Origin: an uncultured Bacteroidota bacterium
GTDB lineage: Bacteria; Bacteroidota; Bacteroidia; Bacteroidales; UBA12481
DNA length: 64,000 nt
Reading direction: 5' to 3'
Assembly (NCBI GenBank): GCA_903851365.1
Contig: CAINOB010000020.1
Coordinates: 30,227-94,226, forward strand
Shown in pieces: positions 2,598 to 35,646 of the stretch; position 1 is the stretch's first letter, and every line of letters begins with the position of its first letter. Made by a program: the position numbers and the translations under genes. The notes below the pieces were generated by a model. It was not told the DNA's origin. It did no database searches and saw nothing but the letters and a program-made list of their open reading frames with translations.

Positions 2598-3748
2598 TGG
2601 CATTAATACTGGTTATTGATGATGAGCGAAGTATCCGGAATACACTAAAAGAAGTTCTGGAGTATGAGAATCATCAGATTGACCTCGCGGAAGATGGGGT
2701 GATTGGACTGTCAATGATTCAAGAGAATCATTATGACATAGTCCTTTGCGACATCAAGATGCCAAAGATGGATGGTATTGAAGTTCTTGAGAAGATCTTT
2801 CAGATTACGACCGATGTACAGGTAATCATGATATCTGGTCATGGGACTGTTGATGCGGCAGTTGAAGCCATTAAGAAAGGGGCCTATGATTTCATCGAGA
2901 AGCCGCTGGATCTTAACCGATTGCTAATTGCAATCAGGAATGCGATGGATAAGACCAGTCTGCTCACCGAGACTAAGAGTTTAAAGAAAAAGGTAGCCAG
3001 AAATTATCAGATGATTGGGGAATCGCAGGCTATGAAAAAGATCAAAGAAATGATCGACCGAGTCGCCCCAACGGATGCAAGAGTATTGATTACCGGCTCA
3101 AATGGAACAGGCAAGGAGCTAGTTGCCAGACAATTGCATGAACAGAGCAATCGGGCCTGCGGACTATTTGTGGAAGTCAATTGTGCTGCAATACCATCGG
3201 AACTAATCGAAAGTGAGCTTTTTGGACATGAAAAAGGATCATTTACATCTGCATTCAAGCAAAGAAAAGGCAAATTCGAATTAGCGGATAAAGGGACCCT
3301 TTTCCTGGATGAGATTGGTGACATGAGCCTATCGGCGCAGGCCAAGGTATTAAGGGCGCTGCAGGAAGGTCGAATTACCAGGGTTGGTGGAGATAAAGAC
3401 ATTACTGTGGATGTCAGGGTAATTGCTGCCACCAATAAAAATCTTAAAGAAGAAATTGCAGAAAACCGTTTTAGAGAAGATCTATACCATCGTTTGGGGG
3501 TTATCATTATACAGGTTCCTCCATTAAAGGATCGTACGGATGATATTCCTTTGTTAGCGACGCATTTTATCGACCAAATTTGCTCAGAGATGGGAATGCC
3601 ACCAAAGCAGATCGATGACGATGCAGTAGAAGAGTTAAAGAAACTCCAATGGACAGGTAACATCCGTGAATTCAGGAATGTTATTGAAAGGCTTATCATT
3701 CTAGGAGGGCAGATTATCACGAGCGAAGATGTCAAGGTGTTTGCCTAA
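2597..3748 (+). CDS. Sigma-54-dependent response regulator (receiver + AAA+ domain, no C-terminal HTH)
   Basis: Receiver motif VLCDIKMPKMDG, Walker A GSNGTGKE, GAFTGA-position loop GSFTSA and Walker B LFLDEIGD. The protein ends shortly after NIREFRNVIERL. Its start overlaps the permease stop (TAATG). Confidence 0.8.
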   Translation: MALILVIDDERSIRNTLKEVLEYENHQIDLAEDGVIGLSMIQENHYDIVLCDIKMPKMDGIEVLEKIFQITTDVQVIMISGHGTVDAAVEAIKKGAYDFIEKPLDLNRLLIAIRNAMDKTSLLTETKSLKKKVARNYQMIGESQAMKKIKEMIDRVAPTDARVLITGSNGTGKELVARQLHEQSNRACGLFVEVNCAAIPSELIESELFGHEKGSFTSAFKQRKGKFELADKGTLFLDEIGDMSLSAQAKVLRALQEGRITRVGGDKDITVDVRVIAATNKNLKEEIAENRFREDLYHRLGVIIIQVPPLKDRTDDIPLLATHFIDQICSEMGMPPKQIDDDAVEELKKLQWTGNIREFRNVIERLIILGGQIITSEDVKVFA

Positions 3749-24283: not shown

Positions 24284-26989
24284 TTAAATTCCTCCGACAA
24301 GTTTAATGATCTCCTCTCCAATACCAATTTTATAACCAGAGGAGAGGTAGGTCACTTTACTTTCCTTATTAATCCTTATAACCACTGGCAACTGTCCTGA
24401 AAAGCTTTTGCCAGTGGTTTTTTCCAATTCAGTCAAAGAATACAAATCCTGGACCAGGACAAATCTCGATTTAGCTGGAAGGTTTTTCCAAGTATCCTGA
24501 TTAAACCCTGCCGGAAGTTTATTTTCTGGAACGATAAATATGAAAGGGCAGTTCAATTTATCAATCTCCTTTTTCAACATTCCAAGATCCTGAAAAATGT
24601 GTTTTGATGGTTCTTTATCCGGTTCTATCCAGCAAATTACAGCACGATCGGTTGCAACAATATCCTTCCAATTAAATGGTTGATTATCCATGGTTTTGAC
24701 ATTCCAGGAAGGGTTAAGTGTCCCAAGGATTTCCGGAGCTTTACCTGACTTTCGCAAGGAGATCATCATGATTTTCTTTTCACCCCCTTTCAATTCGAAG
24801 AAAGTCAAGGTGCTCAACACTTTTCCTCCCGGGATACGATTTCCCGTTACGAGCAGATAAAATCCCTGATCAAGAGTTAAAGGACCTGCCAAAGGATCTC
24901 CGAAATTATCAGAACCATAAGCCAGGGTTTTGTATTTACCATTCTCAAAATGAGCCAATGTATAATGAGTTTCATATTGCGGTTTTACCGGATTTGAAGG
25001 ATCATTTGTGAGGATCAGAGTTCCACTTTGGAGTGCGGACAATTTAGATTCATCAAAACCAACTTTAATCCAACTTGAATCAGTCCAGTACTCAACCTCC
25101 AGCGTACCTGGTTTCAATCTGGCAGGTATTCCAAATGTACGGAAGCAGGCCACGGCAAATATTTTACGTGAATCAGGGTCTGCAACTCGCAGGTTGTATA
25201 CTCCAACAGGAGTGAGTGGCGTATTATAATAGTTATCGTTGTTATTGATTTTGATATTCTGTCTGATCCATTCGATCAAATCATCCGGATTTTTACGGAC
25301 ATTATCAATGAATTTTCGACCAAATTTCAAAGTCAGAAAAGATCGGTAAGCCACAAGCATTTCATTTGCAACGCGGGGGTTAAGAAGCGCCTCGAAAGGG
25401 AAAGTGGTCTCAGAAGATTTGGAGGTAAGAGGCGGTATCACCGCTTTACCAGGCGAGACAGTCAGGTGATCGAGAAGAATATCGGCTTTGGTGTCGCGCA
25501 GGTCCTTATCTGCAATCAGACTGAGAAGCTTCATGGCAACATCCCTCAACTCCGGTTTAACAGCTTTAAGAAAATATTCAATTTCATTGTAATTACCGCG
25601 GCTTCTGGAGATGAAATTCCAGGTTTGTTCAATATCCAGGTTAAGAGACTCAGCGAATATTCGAGACTCTTTTTCTGTTCTAAATGTTTTCTCATATGCG
25701 CCCCGAATAGAATCTTCCCGGCGAAGCATGATATTGTTCTTATCCCTGCAATCATTGGCGATCTGCAATGGATCGCGTTGAATCGGTGGAGTCATATCGA
25801 TATCCAATTTCAACGAGGCATAGGGTTTTTGGTCAATCTTCAGGGTAAGAGTGTCGATATCGGCTACAGTAATTTTCGAAAATCCAAAATTATCACCTGC
25901 ATAAGCCCACACCACCAAATCCCCGAAGCCAGTAAGAAAATCGCAATATCCCTTATCGTCAGTTTTTTTAACCGAGATCGGGTAATATTCTGCATAATTA
26001 TACAATTGAAATTCCACGGTGGCATTTTTCTCAGGCTGACCTGCCAAATTCAGGACTTTAACATGGATTTCTTTGGTTGGCGCATAGGTTGAAAGTGTAT
26101 TTAGGAGGGCGAAATTTGATTCACGATTTTCTGCCCGCTCCTCACCTTTATAATCACCAAAAGCCTTAGTATGTATGAGCATTGCTCTTCTTGCCGGTTC
26201 TGTGAACCAACCCAGATCGGGAACACATTCAGGTTCGCAGGCTCCCATATAGTGCCATTTACCATCAGCCCAGAATTCCACCCATGCATGATTATCATCT
26301 GAATGGGCCCAGCGTGGGGTGTACACTTGTCTGGCTGGAATTGCAACTGCTCTCAGCGCCGTGACTGCAAACGTAGACTCCTCGCCGCATCTCCCATAAG
26401 CAGTTATTAATGAAGCTAATGGAGCAGATGTTCGGATATCGCTACCGCGGTAAGTTACTTTTTCATGACACCAATGATTAACCTCAATAGCCGCCTGGAG
26501 CATTGACATTTTTTTAATCCGGACCTTCAGTTCCTTAAAAAAAACTATCCTGGCGGTATCAAGATTTTCGTTATTCACGCGATAGGGAATTACGAAATGG
26601 CGAAATAAATCTTCAGGTATTGTTTTACCCCAGGAAAATGTATCCCGGGCGGCAAGACTCCATTGTACCTGTTTAAGAAAGAAATCGCCATTATATTCTG
26701 ACAAATCACTCAATGGCATATAGGCGTAGAGGAATTTCAGCCCCTCCAATTCGGTGGTAGTGATTTTGCGTTTTAAAACACCAAACAATAGAGAATCCCG
26801 TGATGATGCCAAAGCCTTTCTCTCAAGGAACTTGGATTCAACTCGCTGACTATATGCAGGATCTGAGTATAAATGGAATTTAGACCCTGAACATGAAGTA
26901 AGGAGAACTCCACATGCCAAAACCGTTAAAACGGTGAGGAACAGATGCGGAGAGGAGGTTAATGAGGATAAATTAGTTCGGGTTTTCAT
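24284..26989 (-). CDS. Transglutaminase-core lipoprotein with C-terminal thioredoxin-like (non-CxxC) region
   Basis: Start at MKTRTN... with lipobox VLLTSC. The Cys-His-Asp transglutaminase core is GRCGEESTFAVTALRAVAIPARQVY...DNHAWVEFWADGKWHYMGACEPE. The C-terminal AVICWIEPDKEPSKH resembles a TlpA/AhpC fold lacking the CxxC. Confidence 0.7.
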   Translation of the reverse strand: MKTRTNLSSLTSSPHLFLTVLTVLACGVLLTSCSGSKFHLYSDPAYSQRVESKFLERKALASSRDSLLFGVLKRKITTTELEGLKFLYAYMPLSDLSEYNGDFFLKQVQWSLAARDTFSWGKTIPEDLFRHFVIPYRVNNENLDTARIVFFKELKVRIKKMSMLQAAIEVNHWCHEKVTYRGSDIRTSAPLASLITAYGRCGEESTFAVTALRAVAIPARQVYTPRWAHSDDNHAWVEFWADGKWHYMGACEPECVPDLGWFTEPARRAMLIHTKAFGDYKGEERAENRESNFALLNTLSTYAPTKEIHVKVLNLAGQPEKNATVEFQLYNYAEYYPISVKKTDDKGYCDFLTGFGDLVVWAYAGDNFGFSKITVADIDTLTLKIDQKPYASLKLDIDMTPPIQRDPLQIANDCRDKNNIMLRREDSIRGAYEKTFRTEKESRIFAESLNLDIEQTWNFISRSRGNYNEIEYFLKAVKPELRDVAMKLLSLIADKDLRDTKADILLDHLTVSPGKAVIPPLTSKSSETTFPFEALLNPRVANEMLVAYRSFLTLKFGRKFIDNVRKNPDDLIEWIRQNIKINNNDNYYNTPLTPVGVYNLRVADPDSRKIFAVACFRTFGIPARLKPGTLEVEYWTDSSWIKVGFDESKLSALQSGTLILTNDPSNPVKPQYETHYTLAHFENGKYKTLAYGSDNFGDPLAGPLTLDQGFYLLVTGNRIPGGKVLSTLTFFELKGGEKKIMMISLRKSGKAPEILGTLNPSWNVKTMDNQPFNWKDIVATDRAVICWIEPDKEPSKHIFQDLGMLKKEIDKLNCPFIFIVPENKLPAGFNQDTWKNLPAKSRFVLVQDLYSLTELEKTTGKSFSGQLPVVIRINKESKVTYLSSGYKIGIGEEIIKLVGGI

Positions 26990-27109
26990 ATCAGTAATAT
27001 TCTTATAATCAACATACAAGCCCATCAGCAGATCGATCTAACAGGGGATGGCATTAATTGTTGAAAATACAATTTTTACTATTTCGTTGGTTTATTCATA
27101 ATCGGTTTC

Positions 27110-27117
27110 TATTTTTG
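27110..27117 (+). promoter_or_regulatory. Candidate Bacteroidota -7 promoter box for the aromatic operon leader
   Basis: TATTTTTG matches TAnnTTTG exactly and ends 21 nt upstream of the leader-peptide ATG. No clean -33 TTTG was seen. Confidence 0.3.
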
Positions 27118-27137
27118 TGGTCGGATTGTAAATAATT

Positions 27138-27230
27138 ATGCAAGCATTTTCGGGAGTATATTATTTTTTCTTCTTCTACTTCGGCTTTTATTTTAAAAGG
27201 TCGACCGGGAATGCCGTGATCATAAATTAG
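27138..27230 (+). CDS. Phe/Tyr-rich leader peptide of the aromatic amino-acid operon
   Basis: Hand-translated product MQAFSGVYYFFFFYFGFYFKRSTGNAVIIN, with 8 Phe and 4 Tyr in residues 4-19. A terminator follows, then pheA. Confidence 0.7.
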   Translation: MQAFSGVYYFFFFYFGFYFKRSTGNAVIIN

Positions 27231-27265
27231 TAAAACATTAAGATCAAAATAGGCGAATCCCGGTC
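27203..27265 (+). promoter_or_regulatory. Candidate antiterminator pairing of the attenuator
   Basis: GACCGGGA (27203-27210, leader codons 22-25) is the perfect reverse complement of TCCCGGTC (27258-27265). The latter contains most of the 5' arm of the terminator stem. Confidence 0.5.
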
Positions 27266-27290
27266 CACAAAGGCCGGGTTTTTTGTTTTT
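27259..27290 (+). terminator. Intrinsic terminator (attenuator) 11 nt upstream of pheA
   Basis: CCCGG(T)CC-acaaa-GGCCGGG followed by TTTTTTGTTTTT. No upstream + strand gene needs terminating here, because the neighbour is divergent. Confidence 0.7.
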
Positions 27291-27301
27291 ATGCAATACA
27301 G

Positions 27302-28156
27302 ATGAAAGATTCAGACACCATCAGAGCGGCAATACAGGGGATAGCAGGGTCATTCCATGATCAGGCTTCAAGGGAATACTTTCCGGATCGGACAGTTCAG
27401 CTTGTTCCTTGCGAGGCATTCGAAGATTTATTTGAAGCAGTGAAATCGGGAGCTGCCGATGTAGCTGTAATGGCGATAGAAAACACTGTAGCTGGATCGC
27501 TGCTACCCAATTACGCCTTGCTCAGGGATTCCGGCTTTACCATTTTTGGTGAGATATTTTTGCGTATAAGCCAGCATCTGATGGCATTGCCCGGTCAATC
27601 GATTGATGATATCACCGAAGCTTATTCCCATTATATGGCCATAGCACAAACCCGCAATTTTTTCAGGGCCTATCCGGGAATTCGACTGATTGAAGCTGAT
27701 GATACGGCTGCGAGTGCAAAAAGGGTTGCCGAAGGCGGTGTGAAACATCAGGCAGCGATTGCCGGAGAGCATGCTGCAGAAATGTATGGTTTGGAAATTC
27801 TGGCGCGCTGCATCGAGACAAACAAGAGAAACTTCACCAGGTTTTTGCTGATCTATAAGCCAAACGGAGTACACCCTTTCAAAACTGAGAATCCGGATAA
27901 AGCATCATTATCGTTCACCCTGCCTCATGAAACAGGAAGTTTATCGCAGGTACTTTCCATATTTTCCTTTTACAGGATTAGCCTGACCAAGATTCAATCG
28001 ATTCCAATCCTGGGCCAGGAGTGGGAGTATCATTTTCTAATCGACCTGACTTTTGATGATCCATTAAGATACAAGCAATCGCTGGATGCGATCAGACCAT
28101 TGACACATGAGCTTACTATTTTGGGTGAATATATTCAGGGAAAACAAGTCCAATGA
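27302..28156 (+). CDS. pheA: Prephenate dehydratase (PDT + ACT domains, no chorismate mutase domain)
   Basis: 284 aa with the NFTRFLLI motif and a C-terminal ACT-like region (IQSIPILGQEWEYHFLIDL). Confidence 0.85.
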   Translation: MKDSDTIRAAIQGIAGSFHDQASREYFPDRTVQLVPCEAFEDLFEAVKSGAADVAVMAIENTVAGSLLPNYALLRDSGFTIFGEIFLRISQHLMALPGQSIDDITEAYSHYMAIAQTRNFFRAYPGIRLIEADDTAASAKRVAEGGVKHQAAIAGEHAAEMYGLEILARCIETNKRNFTRFLLIYKPNGVHPFKTENPDKASLSFTLPHETGSLSQVLSIFSFYRISLTKIQSIPILGQEWEYHFLIDLTFDDPLRYKQSLDAIRPLTHELTILGEYIQGKQVQ

Positions 28157-29325
28157 AAAGATTACTAATCGAACCATCGACAAGGATTGAGGGATTGGAA
28201 GAGTACTATTTCTCAACAAAACTTAAGCAGATCCGGGAAATGAACCTGACCGGAGAGACAGTCATCAATCTTGGCATCGGAAGTCCTGACCAGGCACCTG
28301 CAGAAGAAGCCATTGAAGAATTATCGGTTCAGGCACGAGACAAAAATAGTCATGGATACCAGCCTTACCAAGGTCTTCCGGATTTACGTAAAGCTTTTAG
28401 CGGGTGGTATTCCAGATCGTATGGAGTTGAATTAGATCCGGACAGTCAAATTTTACCACTGTTTGGATCAAAAGAAGGGTTAATGCACATAGCCATGTCA
28501 TTTCTTAGCCCTGGAGATGCAGCATTGGTTCCTGATCCAGGCTACCCTGCTTATTCGGCAGTCACCCGACTGGCAGGTGCAAAGGTCATAACTTATCCTC
28601 TATTGCCTGAAAATGGGTGGATGCCCGACCTGAATTTCATAGAATTAATGGGAATTGACAGGGTTAAGGTGATGTGGGTTAATTATCCGCACATGCCGAC
28701 TGGTACCAGGGCAACTAAAGAATTATTCGGAGAATTGGTGGCCTTTGCGATGAATCACAGGATACTGCTGGTAAACGACAATCCTTACAGTTTTATTCTC
28801 AATAATGAGCCGATCAGCCTGTTAGCAGCTCCTGATGCAATAGAAACCTGCCTTGAATTGAATAGCCTGAGCAAATCACATAATATGGCAGGTTGGAGGA
28901 TCGGGATGGTTGCCGGGAGGAAAGAGTATATGGATTATCTGATGAGATTTAAAAGTCAGATGGACTCTGGCATGTTCAGGCCCATGCAGCTTGCAGCTGT
29001 GAAGGCATTGGAAGCCGGACCTGAATGGTACGAGAAAATAAACACTGTTTACCGTGAGCGAAAAGTAGTTGCTCATGCTCTGCTGGATAATCTAAAATGT
29101 ACTTATGATGAGGACCAGGCAGGACTTTTTGTTTGGGCCCGGATTCCATCATCAGAACGTTCAGGGCAAGAATTGGCAGATCGTATCCTCATGGAGAAAA
29201 GGGTTTTTATCACGCCCGGTTTTATTTTCGGACCTCAAGGCGACAAATATATCAGGGTTTCCCTTTGCCAGCCTAAAGAAATAATCGTCAGTGCAATTGA
29301 AAGAATTAACGGAGCATTATTATGA
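28153..29325 (+). CDS. Class I/II PLP aminotransferase (probable aromatic/prephenate aminotransferase)
   Basis: PLP-lysine motif NSLSKSHNMAGWRIG. It overlaps pheA by 4 nt and tyrA by 4 nt. Confidence 0.8.
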   Translation: MKRLLIEPSTRIEGLEEYYFSTKLKQIREMNLTGETVINLGIGSPDQAPAEEAIEELSVQARDKNSHGYQPYQGLPDLRKAFSGWYSRSYGVELDPDSQILPLFGSKEGLMHIAMSFLSPGDAALVPDPGYPAYSAVTRLAGAKVITYPLLPENGWMPDLNFIELMGIDRVKVMWVNYPHMPTGTRATKELFGELVAFAMNHRILLVNDNPYSFILNNEPISLLAAPDAIETCLELNSLSKSHNMAGWRIGMVAGRKEYMDYLMRFKSQMDSGMFRPMQLAAVKALEAGPEWYEKINTVYRERKVVAHALLDNLKCTYDEDQAGLFVWARIPSSERSGQELADRILMEKRVFITPGFIFGPQGDKYIRVSLCQPKEIIVSAIERINGALL

Positions 29326-30182
29326 CAGTTTGTATTATTGGCCTGGGTTTGATCGGTGGATCCATTGGTCTTGAGTTGAAAACCAAGCGTTTTTCTGATC
29401 GTATTATTGGTGTTGAAAAAAATCCGGCATACGCTAAAATCGCGTTAGAAAGAGGATTGGTCGATGAGGTTGCCAAACTGGTTGACGGCATTCAACAATC
29501 CGATCTGATCATTCTGGCCATTCCTGTTGACGGAATTCTTTCCTTATTGCCATTCATTTTGGATTATGTTACCCATCAAACGGTTACCGATGTCGGATCA
29601 ACCAAAATGAGTATTACCGAGATGGTGAGGAACCATCCGAAACGTTCAAATTACGTTCCATCCCATCCTATGTCGGGTACGGAATTCTCAGGGCCAGAGG
29701 CAGCGATTTCAGGATTGTTCAACAAAAAAGTCGGCATTATCTGCGATATGGCACTCAGCAATCCAAAAGCGCTCGAGATGATAACGAATTTATATATGGC
29801 CCTTAATATGAGGCTCATTTTCATGAGTTCAAAAGAGCATGATTTGCATACCGCCTATGTTTCTCATATCTCGCATCTTACGTCCTTTGCACTCGCATTG
29901 ACGGTTCTGGATAAGGAACAGAATGAAAAAAATATTCTGAACCTCGCATCCGGAGGTTTTGACAGTACAGTCAGGCTTGCAGCATCATCAGCAGAAATGT
30001 GGGTACCGGTTTTCGATCAAAACAGAGAAAATGTTGTAGAGGTGATGGACACGTATATTGAAAAGATGACTCAATTTAAAGATTTAATTCAAGCCGGAGA
30101 GACTAATAAAGTCAGGGACCTGATAAAAAAAGCCAACATTATTCAAAAAACATTAAACTTGAACCCATGGAATCAAAAATAG
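29322..30182 (+). CDS. tyrA: Prephenate dehydrogenase
   Basis: VCIIGLGLIGGSIGLELK Rossmann motif and the SHPMSG motif. Confidence 0.85.
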   Translation: MTVCIIGLGLIGGSIGLELKTKRFSDRIIGVEKNPAYAKIALERGLVDEVAKLVDGIQQSDLIILAIPVDGILSLLPFILDYVTHQTVTDVGSTKMSITEMVRNHPKRSNYVPSHPMSGTEFSGPEAAISGLFNKKVGIICDMALSNPKALEMITNLYMALNMRLIFMSSKEHDLHTAYVSHISHLTSFALALTVLDKEQNEKNILNLASGGFDSTVRLAASSAEMWVPVFDQNRENVVEVMDTYIEKMTQFKDLIQAGETNKVRDLIKKANIIQKTLNLNPWNQK

Positions 30183-31255
30183 CTTCAACAACATTTGCCG
30201 GTTGGGGATTCGATGCAACCAGGCCTTTAGTAATTGCCGGACCCTGTTCCGCAGAAACTGAGGAACAGGTTCTGGATACTGCCAGACGACTAAAATCAAC
30301 ACGTACGCAAGTATATCGTGCAGGAATCTGGAAACCGCGCACCCGGCCAAATTCCTTTGAAGGAGTCGGAGTAAAAGGATTGAAATGGCTCAAAATGGTG
30401 AAAGAGGAAACGGGTTTGCTTACCACAACGGAAGTAGCAAACGCCCAGCACGCCTATGAAGCTTTAAAATATGGGGTTGATATACTATGGATCGGGGCCA
30501 GGACCACCGTCAATCCATTTACAATCCAGGAGATTGCTGATGCGCTAAGTGGCGTGGATATACCTGTATGTGTTAAAAATCCCGTGAACCCGGATGTGGA
30601 CTTGTGGATCGGATCGATCGAACGATTGCAAAAGGTTGGGATAAACAGGATAGCTGCCGTTCACCGGGGATTCTCAAGTTTCTCTGAAAATCGTTATAGG
30701 AATGCACCTAACTGGCAGATTCCTATCGAATTAAAAAGAAGAAGACCAGATTTACCAATGATTTGTGATCCCAGTCATATATCCGGCCGCAGAAATTTAC
30801 TTTTAGAGGTTTCGCAAAAGGCGATGGACCTAAACTTTGACGGGTTGATGATTGAAACACATCCCGATCCGGACAATGCCTGGTCGGATGCGAAACAGCA
30901 AATTACACCTGAGGAACTGGGTATCCTCCTTGACCAGCTTATTCTTCGAAAAACCGATCCGGGCAGTGAAGGTTTTATTCACCAGCTTGAGGCACTTCGT
31001 TGTGAGATTGACCGACTCGACCAGGAGCTTATGAATATTCTTGAAGACAGGATGAAAGTTGCCGCCGGTATCGGACAATGCAAAAAAGATAATGGCGTAA
31101 CGATTCTCCAACCTGCCCGGTGGGATCAGATCATATCGAAATATCTGGCTGTTGGCCAAACAAAAGGGTTCTCTGAGGAATTCATAAGGAAGGTATTCAT
31201 GGCCATTCACCAGGAGTCCATCAACACGCAGACTAAGATCATGAACGAAGAATAA
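30167..31255 (+). CDS. Bifunctional 3-deoxy-7-phosphoheptulonate (DAHP) synthase / chorismate mutase type II
   Basis: KDO8PS-like type I-beta DAHPS motifs VIAGPCSAE and ICDPSH. The C-terminal AroQ-like helix region is LEALRCEIDRLDQELMNILEDRMKVAAGIGQCK. Confidence 0.85.
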   Translation: MESKIASTTFAGWGFDATRPLVIAGPCSAETEEQVLDTARRLKSTRTQVYRAGIWKPRTRPNSFEGVGVKGLKWLKMVKEETGLLTTTEVANAQHAYEALKYGVDILWIGARTTVNPFTIQEIADALSGVDIPVCVKNPVNPDVDLWIGSIERLQKVGINRIAAVHRGFSSFSENRYRNAPNWQIPIELKRRRPDLPMICDPSHISGRRNLLLEVSQKAMDLNFDGLMIETHPDPDNAWSDAKQQITPEELGILLDQLILRKTDPGSEGFIHQLEALRCEIDRLDQELMNILEDRMKVAAGIGQCKKDNGVTILQPARWDQIISKYLAVGQTKGFSEEFIRKVFMAIHQESINTQTKIMNEE

Positions 31256-31320
31256 TGTGCAAATGTGCTAATGAGGTAATATGCTAATAAAAGTAAATTA
31301 GAGGATTTAAGGGAAAGATT

Positions 31321-32574
31321 ATGCAGATAACGGTTCAGCGATCGAGGATCTCCGGGAGAGTTGCAGCACCACCTTCAAAGAGTTACGCCCAGCGTGCTCT
31401 TGCCGGCGCTCTGCTGGCCAAGGGAACAACCACCATCTTTAATCCCTCTCGTAGCGATGATGCTCAGGCCGCCTTAAGAATCATTCAGCAATTGGGAGCT
31501 GCTATTGAAGATCTTGGTGACCGGCTGATCATTAAAGGAGGGTTTAGTCCAAAGGGTCAAAAGCTGGATTGCGGTGAGGCTGGGCTCAGCTTGCGCATGT
31601 TTTCACCGATTGCCGCCCTGGCTGATCAAACCATGCTGATGAATGGCGCCGGGTCGCTTTTAAAAAGACCGGTTCAAATGATCAATGATGCGTTGAATCA
31701 ACTCGGGTGCCGCTGCCAATCTCAGGATGGATTTTTACCTGTCTGGATAAAAGGACCTTTAAAGAGCGGAAAGGCGACTATTGACGGCTCCATCTCGTCA
31801 CAGCTACTTACCGGCATGCTCATGGCATTACCGGTGGTTAAAGGGGATTCGGAGATTTCTGTATCCAACCTTCAGAGCCTTCCATATATTGATATGACTA
31901 TCAATATGTTAAAGCAGTTTGGTATTTCTGTTGAAAATCGTCATTATGAATCATTCCGAATCTCAGGAAAGCAGAAATACAAGCCTGCAACATTGACTGT
32001 TGAAGGAGATTGGAGCGGAGCATCCTTTCTGCTTGTTGCCGGAGCTCTGGGTGGTGAAATTACTGTCGACGGATTGCAAGCAGATTCGCTGCAGGCTGAC
32101 CGGCAGATTCTGAAAGCCCTAGGTTTTGCCGGTGCTCGTATTGAAACCAGCGATAATCAGGTTACAGTTGGCAGAAATGAACTCAGGGCTTTTGATTTTG
32201 ATGCTACGCATTGCCCTGATTTATTTCCCCCATTGGTGGCATTGGCTGCTCATTGCAATGGAGTGAGCCGTATTGAAGGAGTTGGCAGGCTGGTCCATAA
32301 GGAAAGTAACAGGGCTAAGGTTTTACAGGAGGAGTTTTATAAATTAGGCATATCCATTCGTATTGAAGGAGGAAATCTTTATGTCGCCGGGTCGTCGGTG
32401 ATGAAAAATGGAGAAGTTGATTCACACGGTGACCATAGGATCGCGATGGCCGCAGCAACGGTAGCAACGATCTCAAGAACGCCGGTAAGAATAGCAGGTG
32501 CCGAATGTGTCGCAAAATCATATCCCGGATTTTACCAGGATATAAAATCTGTTGGAGGAAGGATAGATGAATAG
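31321..32574 (+). CDS. aroA: 3-phosphoshikimate 1-carboxyvinyltransferase (EPSP synthase)
   Basis: 417 aa with PPSKSYAQRAL (Lys-Ser-x-x-x-R motif) and the C-terminal DHRIAMAAA motif. Confidence 0.85.
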   Translation: MQITVQRSRISGRVAAPPSKSYAQRALAGALLAKGTTTIFNPSRSDDAQAALRIIQQLGAAIEDLGDRLIIKGGFSPKGQKLDCGEAGLSLRMFSPIAALADQTMLMNGAGSLLKRPVQMINDALNQLGCRCQSQDGFLPVWIKGPLKSGKATIDGSISSQLLTGMLMALPVVKGDSEISVSNLQSLPYIDMTINMLKQFGISVENRHYESFRISGKQKYKPATLTVEGDWSGASFLLVAGALGGEITVDGLQADSLQADRQILKALGFAGARIETSDNQVTVGRNELRAFDFDATHCPDLFPPLVALAAHCNGVSRIEGVGRLVHKESNRAKVLQEEFYKLGISIRIEGGNLYVAGSSVMKNGEVDSHGDHRIAMAAATVATISRTPVRIAGAECVAKSYPGFYQDIKSVGGRIDE

Positions 32575-33523
32575 TTTCGGTAAAAATTTCAGGGTCAGTA
32601 TTTTTGGAGAGTCTCATGGAACATTGCTCGGAATCACGATTGATGGCTGTAAACCGGGAATCTCCATTTCGGAGCAGGATTTCATGGAGGATATTCGTCG
32701 GAGGCAGCCAGGAGGAACCGGTACCACCCCTCGTGTTGAAACGGATTTACCAAAAATTGTTTCCGGGTGGTTTAACGGTTTTACGACAGGCGCTCCATTG
32801 ACCATAGTTTTTGAGAATCAAAATACAAAATCAGGTGATTATGATCACCTTCGAAAGCAGCCAAGGCCCGGTCATGCCGATTGGGTAGCCATGATGAAAT
32901 TCAATGGATTCAATGATCATCGTGGCGGCGGACATTTCAGCGGCAGGTTGACGCTTGCCCTGGTAGCTGCAGGAGTGGTTGCAAAAAAGATGATCGGATC
33001 CATCAAGGTTTCCGCTAAGCTTATTGAGGCCGGCGGCAATAGAGACATTGAGGCGGCTATAGCCAAGGCTGTGGAAGAGAAAGACTCCATCGGGGGTATC
33101 ATCGAATGTGTAGCTTCTTCTTTACCGATCGGTCTAGGCGAGCCTTTTTTTGATTCTGTGGAATCGATGCTTGCACATGCCGCTTTTGCCATACCTGCCA
33201 TAAAGGGGATTGAGTTTGGAAGCGGTTTCAGTGCAGCTAAGATGAAGGGCAGCCAGCATAATGACCGGATAATATCAAAAGAAGGTATGACCGACACTAA
33301 CAATGCGGGTGGTATTAACGGGGGCCTAACCAATGGCAATGACCTGATTTTCAGGGTTGCAGTTAAACCTACATCCAGTACATCCCAGCCTCAGCAGACG
33401 TTAAATTTAGAGAGTGGAAAGGTGGAGGAGTTGGTCATTGGTGGCAGGCACGACACTTGTATTGCGCTGAGAGTTCCTGTTGTACTTGAGGCTATTACAG
33501 CAATTGTGCTGGCCGGATTTTAA
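32567..33523 (+). CDS. aroC: Chorismate synthase (compact 318-aa form)
   Basis: Motifs FGESHG, RPGHADW, GGGHFSGR and KPTSS...GRHD. It overlaps aroA by 8 nt. Confidence 0.9.
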   Translation: MNSFGKNFRVSIFGESHGTLLGITIDGCKPGISISEQDFMEDIRRRQPGGTGTTPRVETDLPKIVSGWFNGFTTGAPLTIVFENQNTKSGDYDHLRKQPRPGHADWVAMMKFNGFNDHRGGGHFSGRLTLALVAAGVVAKKMIGSIKVSAKLIEAGGNRDIEAAIAKAVEEKDSIGGIIECVASSLPIGLGEPFFDSVESMLAHAAFAIPAIKGIEFGSGFSAAKMKGSQHNDRIISKEGMTDTNNAGGINGGLTNGNDLIFRVAVKPTSSTSQPQQTLNLESGKVEELVIGGRHDTCIALRVPVVLEAITAIVLAGF

Positions 33524-33573
33524 TCAGCAGAATTTTGTATTTTGGGAGGAAAATAAACCATCATACAAAATTT

Positions 33574-34770
33574 ATGAAATCTTTCGATCCCGCTTCCAAT
33601 ATCCAAGATCTTCTGCAGTTTGGCGAATATGGCGATGTTAACCCATCGATCACCGACAGTGCAACATTTACTTTTATGCAGGCAAAAACCATGGCTGACA
33701 CCTTCCATGGTGAAACACAGGGTTGCTTTTTATATTCCCGTCACTGGAATCCCAGCAACAAATATCTTTCCGATGCCCTGGCTGCGATGGAAGGCACTGA
33801 GGCTGCATGGGTGACGGCTTCGGGAATGAGCGCTATAACCTGCGCCCTTCTTCATGGTATCTCTACTGGTGACCACATCGTTGCGAGTGTCACTTCTTAT
33901 GGCGGAACTTTTGCTTTTCTAAGTAATTGGATAAAAAAATTCAAGGTTGAGGTTTCCTTTGTCAACATAACCAACCTGGATTCGGTTAAAAAAGCCATAA
34001 AACCGAATACGAAGCTGATATACACGGAGACCATGACAAATCCGATGCTTCAGATTTCAGATATTCCTGCGCTATCAAAAATCGCTCATGAGAATGGAGC
34101 AAAACTGATTGTTGACAATACTTTTTCACCGATGATAGTTTCGCCATGTCGTCATGGAGCGGATATTACCGTATACAGTATGACAAAGTTTATCAATGGG
34201 AAAAACGACTGTGTTGCCGGTGCCATTTGTTCCACAGCAGAATATATCAGTTCACTTATCGATGTCAATAATGGTACGGCAATGTTGCTCGGACCAGTAC
34301 TTGACCCGATGCGATCCTCATCAATCCTGAAGAACTTGCATACTCTTCATATCAGGATGAAGCAGCACAGTTTCAATGCTCAATACCTTGCAGAAAAATT
34401 CAAGACAATCGGATTAAATTTCAATTATCCGGGAGTACCTGAACATCCGGGCCATGAGTTATTAAAGTCGATGATGAATCCCGGGTTCGGTTTCGGCGGT
34501 ATGATTGCAATCGACCTGATATCAGCTGAAAAGGCGAGCAAGGTGATGGAAGCAATGGAAAGAAAAGGGGTTGGTTATCTGGCTGTCAGCCTTGGGTATT
34601 TTAAAACTCTTTTCAGCAACTCTGGGAAAAGCACTTCCTCTGAAATACCTGATGAGATACAGCACGAGATGGGATTATCAGAAGGGTTGATCCGCTTTTC
34701 AGTTGGACTCGACAATGATATTGAAAGGACATTTGAATTGATTAAAGAATCGTTGAAGGAGTCTGAATAG
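33574..34770 (+). CDS. Cys/Met-metabolism PLP-dependent enzyme (methionine gamma-lyase / sulfhydrylase family)
   Basis: PLP-lysine motif YSMTKFINGKND, and YSRHWNPS in place of the usual YSRxGNPT. ATG at 33574 is preferred over the TTG at 33535. Confidence 0.7.
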   Translation: MKSFDPASNIQDLLQFGEYGDVNPSITDSATFTFMQAKTMADTFHGETQGCFLYSRHWNPSNKYLSDALAAMEGTEAAWVTASGMSAITCALLHGISTGDHIVASVTSYGGTFAFLSNWIKKFKVEVSFVNITNLDSVKKAIKPNTKLIYTETMTNPMLQISDIPALSKIAHENGAKLIVDNTFSPMIVSPCRHGADITVYSMTKFINGKNDCVAGAICSTAEYISSLIDVNNGTAMLLGPVLDPMRSSSILKNLHTLHIRMKQHSFNAQYLAEKFKTIGLNFNYPGVPEHPGHELLKSMMNPGFGFGGMIAIDLISAEKASKVMEAMERKGVGYLAVSLGYFKTLFSNSGKSTSSEIPDEIQHEMGLSEGLIRFSVGLDNDIERTFELIKESLKESE

Positions 34771-34806
34771 TTTTGTAACTTATCGACTGAATTAAACTTT
34801 ACTGCC

Positions 34807-35646
34807 ATGATCAGAAAAATAGAAAGCACTTTAGGAAGTACTCCTGTATTAGAGGGAGCCGGAGTGAAATTACAACGCGTTTTTGGTTATCCGCGCAAAG
34901 GATGGTTAGATCCCTTCCTGATGATGGATCATTTTGGATCTGATAATCCAGACGATTATATGGCAGGATTTCCATGGCATCCGCACCGGGGAATTGAAAC
35001 CGTTACTTACATGATTTCCGGTGAGGTTGCACATGAAGATAGCATGGGAAACAAAGGCATTATAAAATCAGGTGAAATCCAGTGGATGACAGCAGGAGGA
35101 GGCATATTACATCAGGAGATGCCCCGAAAGTTTAATGGGTTAATGAGTGGATTTCAACTGTGGGTAAATCTACCTGCTTCTCACAAGATGATGGCGCCGA
35201 GATATCAGGATATTTCAGCACATCTTATACCCGAATTCGATTGGAAGGGCATCACTATCCGGCTGGCCGCCGGCAAGTTTGGTGAATATACCGGTCCGGT
35301 TAAAGACATCGTAATTAAGCCGCGGTTTATGGACATGACGTTACCTGCAGGGGTTGAGCAGACCTTCGATGTTAACGCTGAGCATACGGTCTTTGCTTAC
35401 GTTTTTGAGGGAGCCGCCTTTTTTGACCTGAAAATGGAGCATCCTGTTGAGGCAGGCACGCTGGTGAAGCTCATCTCAGGTGATCAGGTTTTTATTGCAG
35501 CCACCAAAGCAGGTGCCCGGTTTCTAATGCTGGACGGCAAACCGCTGCACGAGGAGATTGCCTGGAGAGGACCGATTGTTATGAATACCAAAGAAGAACT
35601 TTATCAAGCATTTGAAGATTACCAGACCGGGCACTTCGTGAAGTGA
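34807..35646 (+). CDS. Pirin family protein
   Basis: Bicupin metal motif HPHRGIETVTYMISGEVAHEDSMGN. Confidence 0.85.
   Translation: MIRKIESTLGSTPVLEGAGVKLQRVFGYPRKGWLDPFLMMDHFGSDNPDDYMAGFPWHPHRGIETVTYMISGEVAHEDSMGNKGIIKSGEIQWMTAGGGILHQEMPRKFNGLMSGFQLWVNLPASHKMMAPRYQDISAHLIPEFDWKGITIRLAAGKFGEYTGPVKDIVIKPRFMDMTLPAGVEQTFDVNAEHTVFAYVFEGAAFFDLKMEHPVEAGTLVKLISGDQVFIAATKAGARFLMLDGKPLHEEIAWRGPIVMNTKEELYQAFEDYQTGHFVK

Follow-up and report, generated by a model that had tools for sequence, protein, structure and literature searches.

Upstream of pheA, the first gene of an aromatic amino acid operon in an uncultured Bacteroidales bacterium, lies a short open reading frame (ORF) rich in phenylalanine (Phe, F) and tyrosine (Tyr, Y) codons, followed by a hairpin and a run of T's. 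A first-pass annotation had read this arrangement as a ribosome-mediated attenuator, in which translation of the ORF would decide between a terminator and an antiterminator. The arrangement is considered here within a window of 64,000 nucleotides (nt), the window being the whole stretch of DNA that was analysed. The leader comprises the following parts, the arms of the 1:2 hairpin being those predicted with RNAalifold.

27138..27230, + strand: leader ORF of 30 codons and, at the 3' end, its stop codon
27159..27194, + strand: regulatory run made up of codons 8-19, YYFFFFYFGFYF (7 Phe, 4 Tyr, 1 conserved Gly)
27174..27190, + strand: segment 1, 5' arm of the 1:2 hairpin, made of the F/Y codons themselves and including UUCGGCUUUU
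27194..27211, + strand: segment 2, 3' arm of the 1:2 hairpin, holding the antiterminator core GACCGGGA (27203-27210)
27212..27255, + strand: antiterminator loop with inner helices, containing the leader stop codon
27258..27266, + strand: segment 3, 5' arm of the terminator, able to pair with segment 2 (antiterminator) or with segment 4 (terminator)
27272..27290, + strand: segment 4, GGCCGGG (27272-27278), and the U-tract TTTTTTGTTTTT, the predicted premature termination site

Direct reading of the sequence shows that the ATG of the leader (27138) stands 164 nt 5' of the pheA start codon (27302), that the encoded peptide is MQAFSGVYYFFFFYFGFYFKRSTGNAVIIN and that the ORF closes with TAG at 27228-27230. 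Phe is found at residues 4, 10-13, 15, 17 and 19 and Tyr at residues 8, 9, 14 and 18, which gives 8 Phe and 4 Tyr within residues 4-19; the leader has no tryptophan (Trp). The coordinates and residue counts given for the ORF in the first-pass annotation were correct. The density of F/Y residues was compared with that of the other small ATG-started ORFs of the window (1261 in total, both strands, whole window). The best 12-residue stretch of the leader contains 11 F/Y, and none of the 1260 other ORFs has more than 6. As the leader is the unique outlier of this set, the feature is not due to chance. A scan of the window for other leader-like ORFs, with runs of W, H, L, I, V, T or other residues, gave no convincing candidate. 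Exact look-up in the protein collection found neither the leader peptide nor its orthologue from L001, one of the related loci introduced below, which indicates that gene callers overlook the leader.

The terminator hairpin (27259-27278, + strand) is G+C-rich, with CCCGGTCC and GGCCGGG as its arms, and lies 28 nt 3' of the leader stop codon. The T-run (27279-27290) follows it directly and ends 11 nt before the pheA ATG. Neither strand has another terminator-like site between 26500 and 28000. The coordinates and the T-run are thus as first described, but the stem had been drawn with a bulged T, and RNAfold favours another form, with a 7-bp stem, one G.U pair and a 6-nt loop (-11.9 kcal/mol). 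A/U flanks would be able to lengthen the stem. The 8-nt complementarity proposed for the antiterminator is exact: GACCGGGA, which covers leader codons 22-25, is the reverse complement of TCCCGGTC (27258-27265). Folded locally, the antiterminator domain (27203-27265) has an energy of -21.2 kcal/mol and contains the 8-bp 2:3 helix together with two inner helices, one between 27212-27215 and 27252-27255, the other between GAUCA (27217-27221) and 27242-27246.

The influence of a ribosome on these folds was simulated by a mask, in which all RNA up to 14 nt beyond the A-site was made unavailable for folding. Without the mask, the terminator forms in the window, and segment 2 is hairpinned with the F/Y codons (27174-27211), as it also is in the consensus of the window clade. 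When the A-site is placed at 27165, 27174 or 27186, the minimum-energy structure is the antiterminator. With the A-site on the final Phe codon (27192) or on the stop codon (27228), the terminator takes over as the minimum-energy structure. In the window, the weighing of terminator against antiterminator by folding therefore comes out as the attenuator proposal would have it.

Conservation was studied in 80 Bacteroidales pheA loci (labelled L001 and so on), obtained by a scan based on PheA alignments with one genome retained per species. Under a strict rule, by which an ORF must start with ATG, comprise 15-32 codons and have 7 or more F/Y in 12 residues, 67 of the 80 loci possess a leader, usually 60-150 nt 5' of pheA; MTRFYAYYFFFYFYFAKNKNGILYA, MNSFFATYFYFYFYFKNK and MNRFSFTYYFYYFYFSNRVKAGVCM are examples. 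Three further leaders were overlooked by this rule (L017, L026 and L044), so that an F/Y-rich mini-ORF is kept in about 70 of the 80 loci, and the conservation to be expected of a regulatory run is indeed seen. In the remaining nine or ten loci, pheA is found directly 3' of another long open frame, and no F/Y leader occurs within 3 kb upstream in L015, L019, L030, L032, L039, L043, L068, L072 and L074. The pheA gene of such loci is probably internal to a different operon and otherwise regulated. A metagenome scan gave additional, closer relatives of the window with the same layout.

Taken together, the leaders contain 410 Phe, 302 Tyr and 6 Trp codons. Their length ranges from 15 to 32 amino acids, and F and Y swap freely between lineages, which argues that composition, and not the peptide sequence, is under selection. 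A K-x-G motif recurs in the C-terminal part of the longer peptides because the GGG or CGGG of segment 2 is encoded there. Closer to the window, a 13-sequence alignment of its clade shows that all 12 relatives keep the leader ATG, the frame and the stop codon. Insertions and deletions are in multiples of three, those inside the run being 3 nt long, and synonymous TTT/TTC and TAT/TAC changes are present. In every member of this clade, the GGC codon of Gly16 (27183-27185) breaks the run as F-G-F. This codon sits within the stem UCGGCUUUU/AAAAGCNCGA of the predicted 1:2 hairpin, and it is probably retained for RNA pairing and not for the peptide.

The hairpins are conserved along with the codons. 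A hairpin followed by at least 4 T's was found between the leader and pheA for 69 of the 76 scored leaders. At these 69 loci, the 5' arm of the hairpin was paired with the stretch running from the end of the F/Y run to the hairpin, and the result was compared with shuffles: 67 loci do better than 95% of the shuffles, with a median z of -3.6. The mean duplex energy is -14.9 kcal/mol when a locus is given its own arm, against -10.4 kcal/mol with the arms of other loci. Segments 2 and 3 form 39 distinct complementary core pairs across loci, for instance GACCGGGA/TCCCGGTC, GAGCGGGA/TCCCGCTC, GGCAGGA/TCCTGCC, ACGGGATTT/AAATCCCGT, GGCGAGGTTT/AAACCTCGCT, TGAGAGCGGA/TCCGCTCTCA and AAGCGGGGTT/AACCCCGCTT. 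The core of segment 2 starts 7-15 nt (median 11) past the last F/Y codon in 69/69 loci, regardless of the position of the stop codon. The latter stands just 5' of segment 2 in 22 loci (TAA GAGCGGG...), which do not have the K-x-G motif; in the 47 others, window included, the ORF continues through segment 2. From locus to locus, the stretch separating segment 2 from segment 3 differs freely in both length and sequence.

Covariation was scored on two alignments made with MAFFT without fitting to a structure, A2 containing the 13 sequences of the window clade and A3 containing 19 distant loci with the stop codon before segment 2. The antiterminator of A2 (8 pairs) is paired in 99% of the cells, with 2 compensatory changes, and its score is reached by 0 of 500 shuffles. 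The corresponding values for the A2 terminator (8 pairs) are 90%, 1 and 86 of 500. The A3 antiterminator (7 pairs) has 86% of its cells paired, with 4 compensatory changes and a score reached by 0-1 of 500 shuffles, and the A3 terminator (9 pairs) has 90%, 5 and 0 of 500. Sliding the partner columns lowers the pairing of the antiterminator to at most 61% in A2 (slide by one) and at most 55% in A3 (slides of one to three). Compensatory changes, proposed at the outset as a test of the stems, thus exist for the antiterminator in both alignments. Moreover, where segment 3 has undergone a C to U change (TCCTGC), segment 2 shows the matching G to A change while segment 4 retains its G in a G.U pair. 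Since segment 2 changes with segment 3 in this way, selection acts on the 2:3 pairing itself. In the clade, RNAalifold also finds the 1:2 hairpin (columns 87-103 with 107-124, window positions 27174-27211), whose pairs are almost all invariant, and it recovers the inner GAUC helix (columns 131-134 with 168-171).

A few loci have a more elaborate upstream region. L023 and L031 carry two F/Y leaders in tandem, from about 380 to 20 nt 5' of pheA (match start at 3001 in both). The first leader, MKKCFFTYFYFYFYFF.., has its own segment 2 and a terminator GGGTCTCGC...GTGAGACC with a T-run; the second, ..DDRFYGYFYFYYFM.., has GGCGGGC as segment 2 and TCCCGCC...GCGGGA with a T-run as terminator. The corresponding records are titled Clostridiales and Flexilinea, but PheA and the leaders look like those of Bacteroidales, and the records are likely to be mis-binned. 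In L034, the terminator and pheA are separated by an insertion of three tandem G+C-rich palindromic units, each about 32 nt long (GCCCCCCGGCCCCCTAAAGGGGGTGTGAG...; around 1492-1600), which brings the distance from leader to pheA to 312 nt; these units look like a small repetitive element. L007 and L008, from two metagenome-assembled genomes of Microbacter, have identical leaders and terminators, and L007 has about 110 extra nt between terminator and pheA.

At this locus, an F/Y-rich leader ORF thus precedes an operon holding both pheA and tyrA, and it is accompanied by an intrinsic terminator and by an antiterminator that overlaps it. These three defining parts are conserved, with covariation, across the Bacteroidales and in the window clade, which supports the interpretation put forward in the first-pass annotation. 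We consider it very probable that the element is a classical leader-peptide transcription attenuator, sensing the charging of tRNA-Phe and tRNA-Tyr and controlling the operon from pheA to aroC. The basis for this view is found in the parts read from the sequence, in their conservation, in the covariation seen for 2:3 as well as for 3:4 pairing, and in the relative fold energies. From these we infer where transcription starts, that the leader is translated, that the ribosome stalls, that the hairpins compete kinetically and that the element responds to Phe and Tyr.

The following mechanism may be envisaged. A Bacteroidota-type promoter would initiate transcription near 27124, and translation of the 30 leader codons would follow at once. 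If Phe or Tyr is scarce, the ribosome would stall on the codon run (27159-27194) and thereby cover segment 1. Segment 2 (27203-27210) would then be free to pair with segment 3 (27258-27265) as soon as the latter is made. In this state, the terminator would be blocked and RNA polymerase would continue into pheA and through to aroC. If both amino acids are plentiful, the ribosome would pass segment 2 and reach the stop codon at 27228, within the antiterminator loop. The 2:3 pairing would be prevented, segments 3 and 4 would pair and transcription would stop in the U-tract (27279-27290). Finally, if the leader is not translated, the 1:2 hairpin (27174-27211) would sequester segment 2 and the terminator would form again.

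Four observations weigh against this mechanism, at least in its simplest form. When the mask simulation is extended at equilibrium to the 69 loci, the terminator survives in 66 of them if no ribosome is present and in all 69 if one is at the stop codon, but a stalled ribosome breaks it in just 24-26. This is because full terminators, with their A/U extensions, outdo the antiterminators in stability. In most relatives, antitermination would therefore have to be kinetic, the 2:3 pairing being formed before segment 4 exists, and the equilibrium simulation is not counted here as support at the level of the family. Another difficulty is that the stop codon of the window clade is 17 nt past segment 2, so that a terminating ribosome would not cover this segment. 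Presumably, a ribosome at the stop codon, placed inside the loop and on an inner helix, would sterically block closure of the 2:3 helix. Furthermore, stalling at the final Phe codon (A-site at 27192), or at the one before it, would place the ribosome over segment 2 itself. The effective sensors would then be the codons from about Tyr8 to Phe15 or Phe17 and not all 12 codons. Lastly, the 1:2 hairpin is nearly invariant, so that covariation lends it weak support.

The surroundings of the leader are described by the following features.

27087..27117, + strand: candidate Bacteroidota-type promoter, with TTGG at 27087-27090 (-33-like), a 19-nt spacer and the -7 box TATTTTTG at 27110-27117
27302-28156, + strand: pheA, prephenate dehydratase (NCBIfam and Pfam)
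28153-29325, + strand: class I/II aminotransferase gene (NCBIfam and Pfam)
29322-30182, + strand: tyrA, prephenate dehydrogenase (NCBIfam and Pfam)
30167-31255, + strand: DAHP synthase fused to chorismate mutase (NCBIfam and Pfam)
31321-32574, + strand: aroA, EPSP synthase (NCBIfam and Pfam)
32567-33523, + strand: aroC, chorismate synthase (NCBIfam and Pfam)
24284-27025, - strand: divergent upstream neighbour, a 913-amino-acid transglutaminase-like protein (Pfam)
27096..27296, - strand: mechanically called ORF of 66 amino acids with a TTG start, spanning promoter, leader and terminator

The promoter motif was read by eye as one of the TTTG/TAnnTTTG type, the consensus of Bacteroides promoters being TTTG and TAnnTTTG. 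TAYTTTTG is nearly invariant across the 13-sequence clade alignment, and the relative L082 has a perfect form, TTTG, 19 nt and TACTTTTG. From this motif, it is plausible that transcription starts at about 27122-27126. A scan for sigma-70 promoters was dropped, as it is uninformative for Bacteroidota.

From pheA to aroC (27302..33523, + strand), consecutive ORFs abut or overlap, and a single transcript would thus carry the genes for the entry step and for the late common pathway as well as those of both branches, to Phe and to Tyr. No terminator-like site was found on the + strand between 28000 and 36500. The closest matches of the window PheA (85-90% identity) belong to metagenome-assembled genomes labelled Porphyromonadaceae or Bacteroidales. 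The aroC ORF encodes 318 amino acids. Its match to NCBIfam profiles of 344-351 residues is split into two parts, so that this chorismate synthase may lack about 25 internal residues or contain a segment that has diverged. Downstream of aroC, on the same strand, the region 33535-35646 contains a pyridoxal-phosphate (PLP) enzyme of Cys/Met metabolism (411 amino acids, TTG start) and then an ORF of 279 amino acids; gaps are short, with no terminator-like site between, and the controlled operon may extend to 35646 and take in both ORFs. On the other side, the upstream neighbour is divergent, as had been stated in the first pass. Its sole match is the Pfam transglutaminase-core domain (at about residues 168-259), and NCBIfam gives none; the greater part of the protein is without assignment.

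As to the antisense ORF, it has no Pfam or NCBIfam match, and exact look-up of its product in the protein collection found nothing. The antisense frame is open for 39-68 amino acids in the relatives. This openness is expected, since no TTY or TAY codon reads as a stop codon in reverse complement, and it is not evidence for a gene. Neither conservation of the frame nor look-up in the protein collection discriminates as a gene test. The ORF is probably spurious. The earlier view that it is an artefact is plausible and gains from the lack of a family match, but the open frame in relatives, being non-discriminating, tests it weakly.

Rfam was searched at two levels. With cmscan, the region 26000-28500 gave three chance matches only at E<=10 (Arrc14, scaDm46E3 and SNORD99), and the whole window gave zero matches at gathering thresholds. 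The match to Arrc14 was rejected, since its E value is 4.2, its 21 bits compare with a gathering score of 99, and it aligns merely the ATG and the terminator.

Considering the properties of the leader, other explanations may be put forward. Riboswitches and T-boxes likewise use alternative terminator and antiterminator hairpins as expression platform. One may thus ask whether a ligand, a protein or a tRNA sets the choice between the hairpins, the F/Y ORF being incidental, and the conserved inner GAUC helix, which has no assigned role, could be brought forward in favour of such an element. However, Rfam is without a match to it, whether locally or window-wide. Beyond segments 2, 3 and 4, the 69 loci share solely in-frame F/Y codons with an ATG and a stop codon, and the freely variable region between segments 2 and 3 leaves no space for a conserved aptamer. 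In-frame insertions and deletions and synonymous changes of F/Y codons also speak for a translated ORF as the sensor, and we regard a ligand- or factor-binding attenuator as very improbable. An equally slight probability is attributed to the idea that the mini-ORF is the gene of a functional hydrophobic micro-protein, with a terminator of its own, which merely sits beside pheA. Conservation of the ORF and recurrence of K-x-G near the C-terminus would fit such a gene. Yet it is the composition that is conserved and not the sequence, as F and Y interchange and the length goes from 15 to 32 residues. The motif itself is due to the GGG/CGGG of segment 2, which covaries with the terminator arm, and it is absent from the 22 loci where the ORF stops before this segment. 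Besides, the ORF always lies directly 5' of pheA.

The hairpin might also be a constitutive or bidirectional terminator, or an insulator, the 8-nt complement being a by-product of the GC stem and the antisense ORF perhaps a real gene. The A-rich stretch before the stem, the roughly symmetrical hairpin and the antisense frame that remains open in relatives are in line with this. Nevertheless, both neighbours face away from the site, so that nothing needs terminating there, and the comparison of own and foreign arms, together with the compensatory changes, shows selection on the 2:3 pairing. As for the antisense ORF, it starts with TTG, has no family match and is open as expected from the complements of TTY/TAY codons. 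Among the three alternatives, this one appears the least credible, by a little. The leader-peptide attenuator remains the preferred explanation.

A wider proposal places the leader of the window in a family that extends over the order, and perhaps over the phylum, that lacks an Rfam model and that has so far been recorded for single species only. According to this proposal, the charging states of tRNA-Phe and tRNA-Tyr may both be read by one leader, which would govern the entire pathway leading from DAHP to the two amino acids. Such a family may be characterised by the strict 7-15 nt spacing rule, by two layouts of the stop codon and by tandem attenuators in some lineages, and in the window clade termination may be controlled by steric exclusion and not by masking of segment 2. 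Taken as a whole, with all these components, the proposal is tentative, and we would sooner doubt it than rely on it.

For the locus itself, the analysis provides a confident regulatory annotation of the unannotated 165-nt leader of an uncultured Bacteroidales genome, and it speaks against annotating the overlapping antisense ORF, which is probably no gene. On a larger scale, a dual Phe/Tyr leader is predicted to stand over the common aromatic pathway in Bacteroidales, including gut Bacteroides, Phocaeicola, Parabacteroides and Muribaculaceae. Such a leader is missing from current RNA family databases, and the data suffice to seed a covariance model. Possible uses are a better annotation of operons and small ORFs in the phylum, and a natural Phe/Tyr-responsive switch for Bacteroides engineering. 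The finding of the pheA leader opens no new mechanism.

An abstract by Vitreschak et al. of 2004 is said to list candidate attenuators in Bacteroidetes/Chlorobi; it is taken as a lead only and not as support. In E. coli, pheA is preceded by pheL, a short leader with a Phe run, with a terminator just before pheA and an alternative antiterminator. The pheL leader contains Phe codons only and controls pheA alone, tyrA being separately under TyrR. The logic of the window leader is the same, but its codons are mixed Phe and Tyr codons, and its operon comprises the common pathway and both branches. Because the Rfam Phe_leader family gives no match at E<=10 in 26000-28500, pheL is to be regarded as an analogue of the window leader and not as a homologue. 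The trp and his attenuators of enterobacteria have four segments, pairing as 1:2, 2:3 and 3:4, with the regulatory codons in segment 1 and termination by default without translation. The four-segment design is common to them and to the window. Unlike in these classical cases, the ORF of the window clade crosses segment 2 and stops 17 nt beyond it, and two amino acids would be sensed instead of one. Families of pheL are described in PMC3082878, and PMC1183508 may be consulted for the classical attenuators.

Within the phylum, the Bacteroid-trp leader (RF01692; Weinberg et al., 2010; PMC2864571) is likewise a leader-peptide-type cis-regulatory RNA of an aromatic amino acid operon. It carries Trp codons and is located upstream of trpE, whereas the window has no match to it and no Trp in its leader. 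The closest system is the leader of pheA-aspC3 in Flavobacterium psychrophilum (Guerin et al., 2021, ISME Commun, Table S7 and Appendix D9; PMC9723704), and a full-text literature search for a Bacteroides pheA leader returned nothing besides this study. Its authors termed the leader a leader peptide attenuation element, with a separate 5' transcribed segment and condition-dependent read-through. They described it for F. psychrophilum alone, noting conservation within Flavobacteriaceae and no Rfam hit (PMC9723704). For the reading preferred here, these transcript data are independent backing from a related class. Like the window, F. psychrophilum belongs to the Bacteroidota and has pheA as the first gene, a short Phe/Tyr-rich ORF (MNTNNTFYSNNSFYFYWNIGRDCYMVI) and a hairpin with a T-run. 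In the printed sequence, segment 2 (GGGATTGT) was found 10 nt past the run, as an exact reverse complement of the 5' arm ACAATCCC. A layout with segment 2 about 10 nt past the run and a terminator with a (T)CCCG core also fits the window and 67-70 Bacteroidales loci. The differences are that F. psychrophilum is a member of the Flavobacteriia and not of the Bacteroidales, that its run is shorter, interrupted and contains one Trp, and that no sequence homology is detectable outside the common design. The first-pass annotation had held a combined Phe and Tyr sensor to be notable. This cannot be maintained, as mixed F/Y leaders are the rule in the order and F. psychrophilum offers a precedent in front of pheA (PMC9723704). 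The element of the window is thus a real switch of the textbook type, and the same architecture has already been reported before pheA in a related class.

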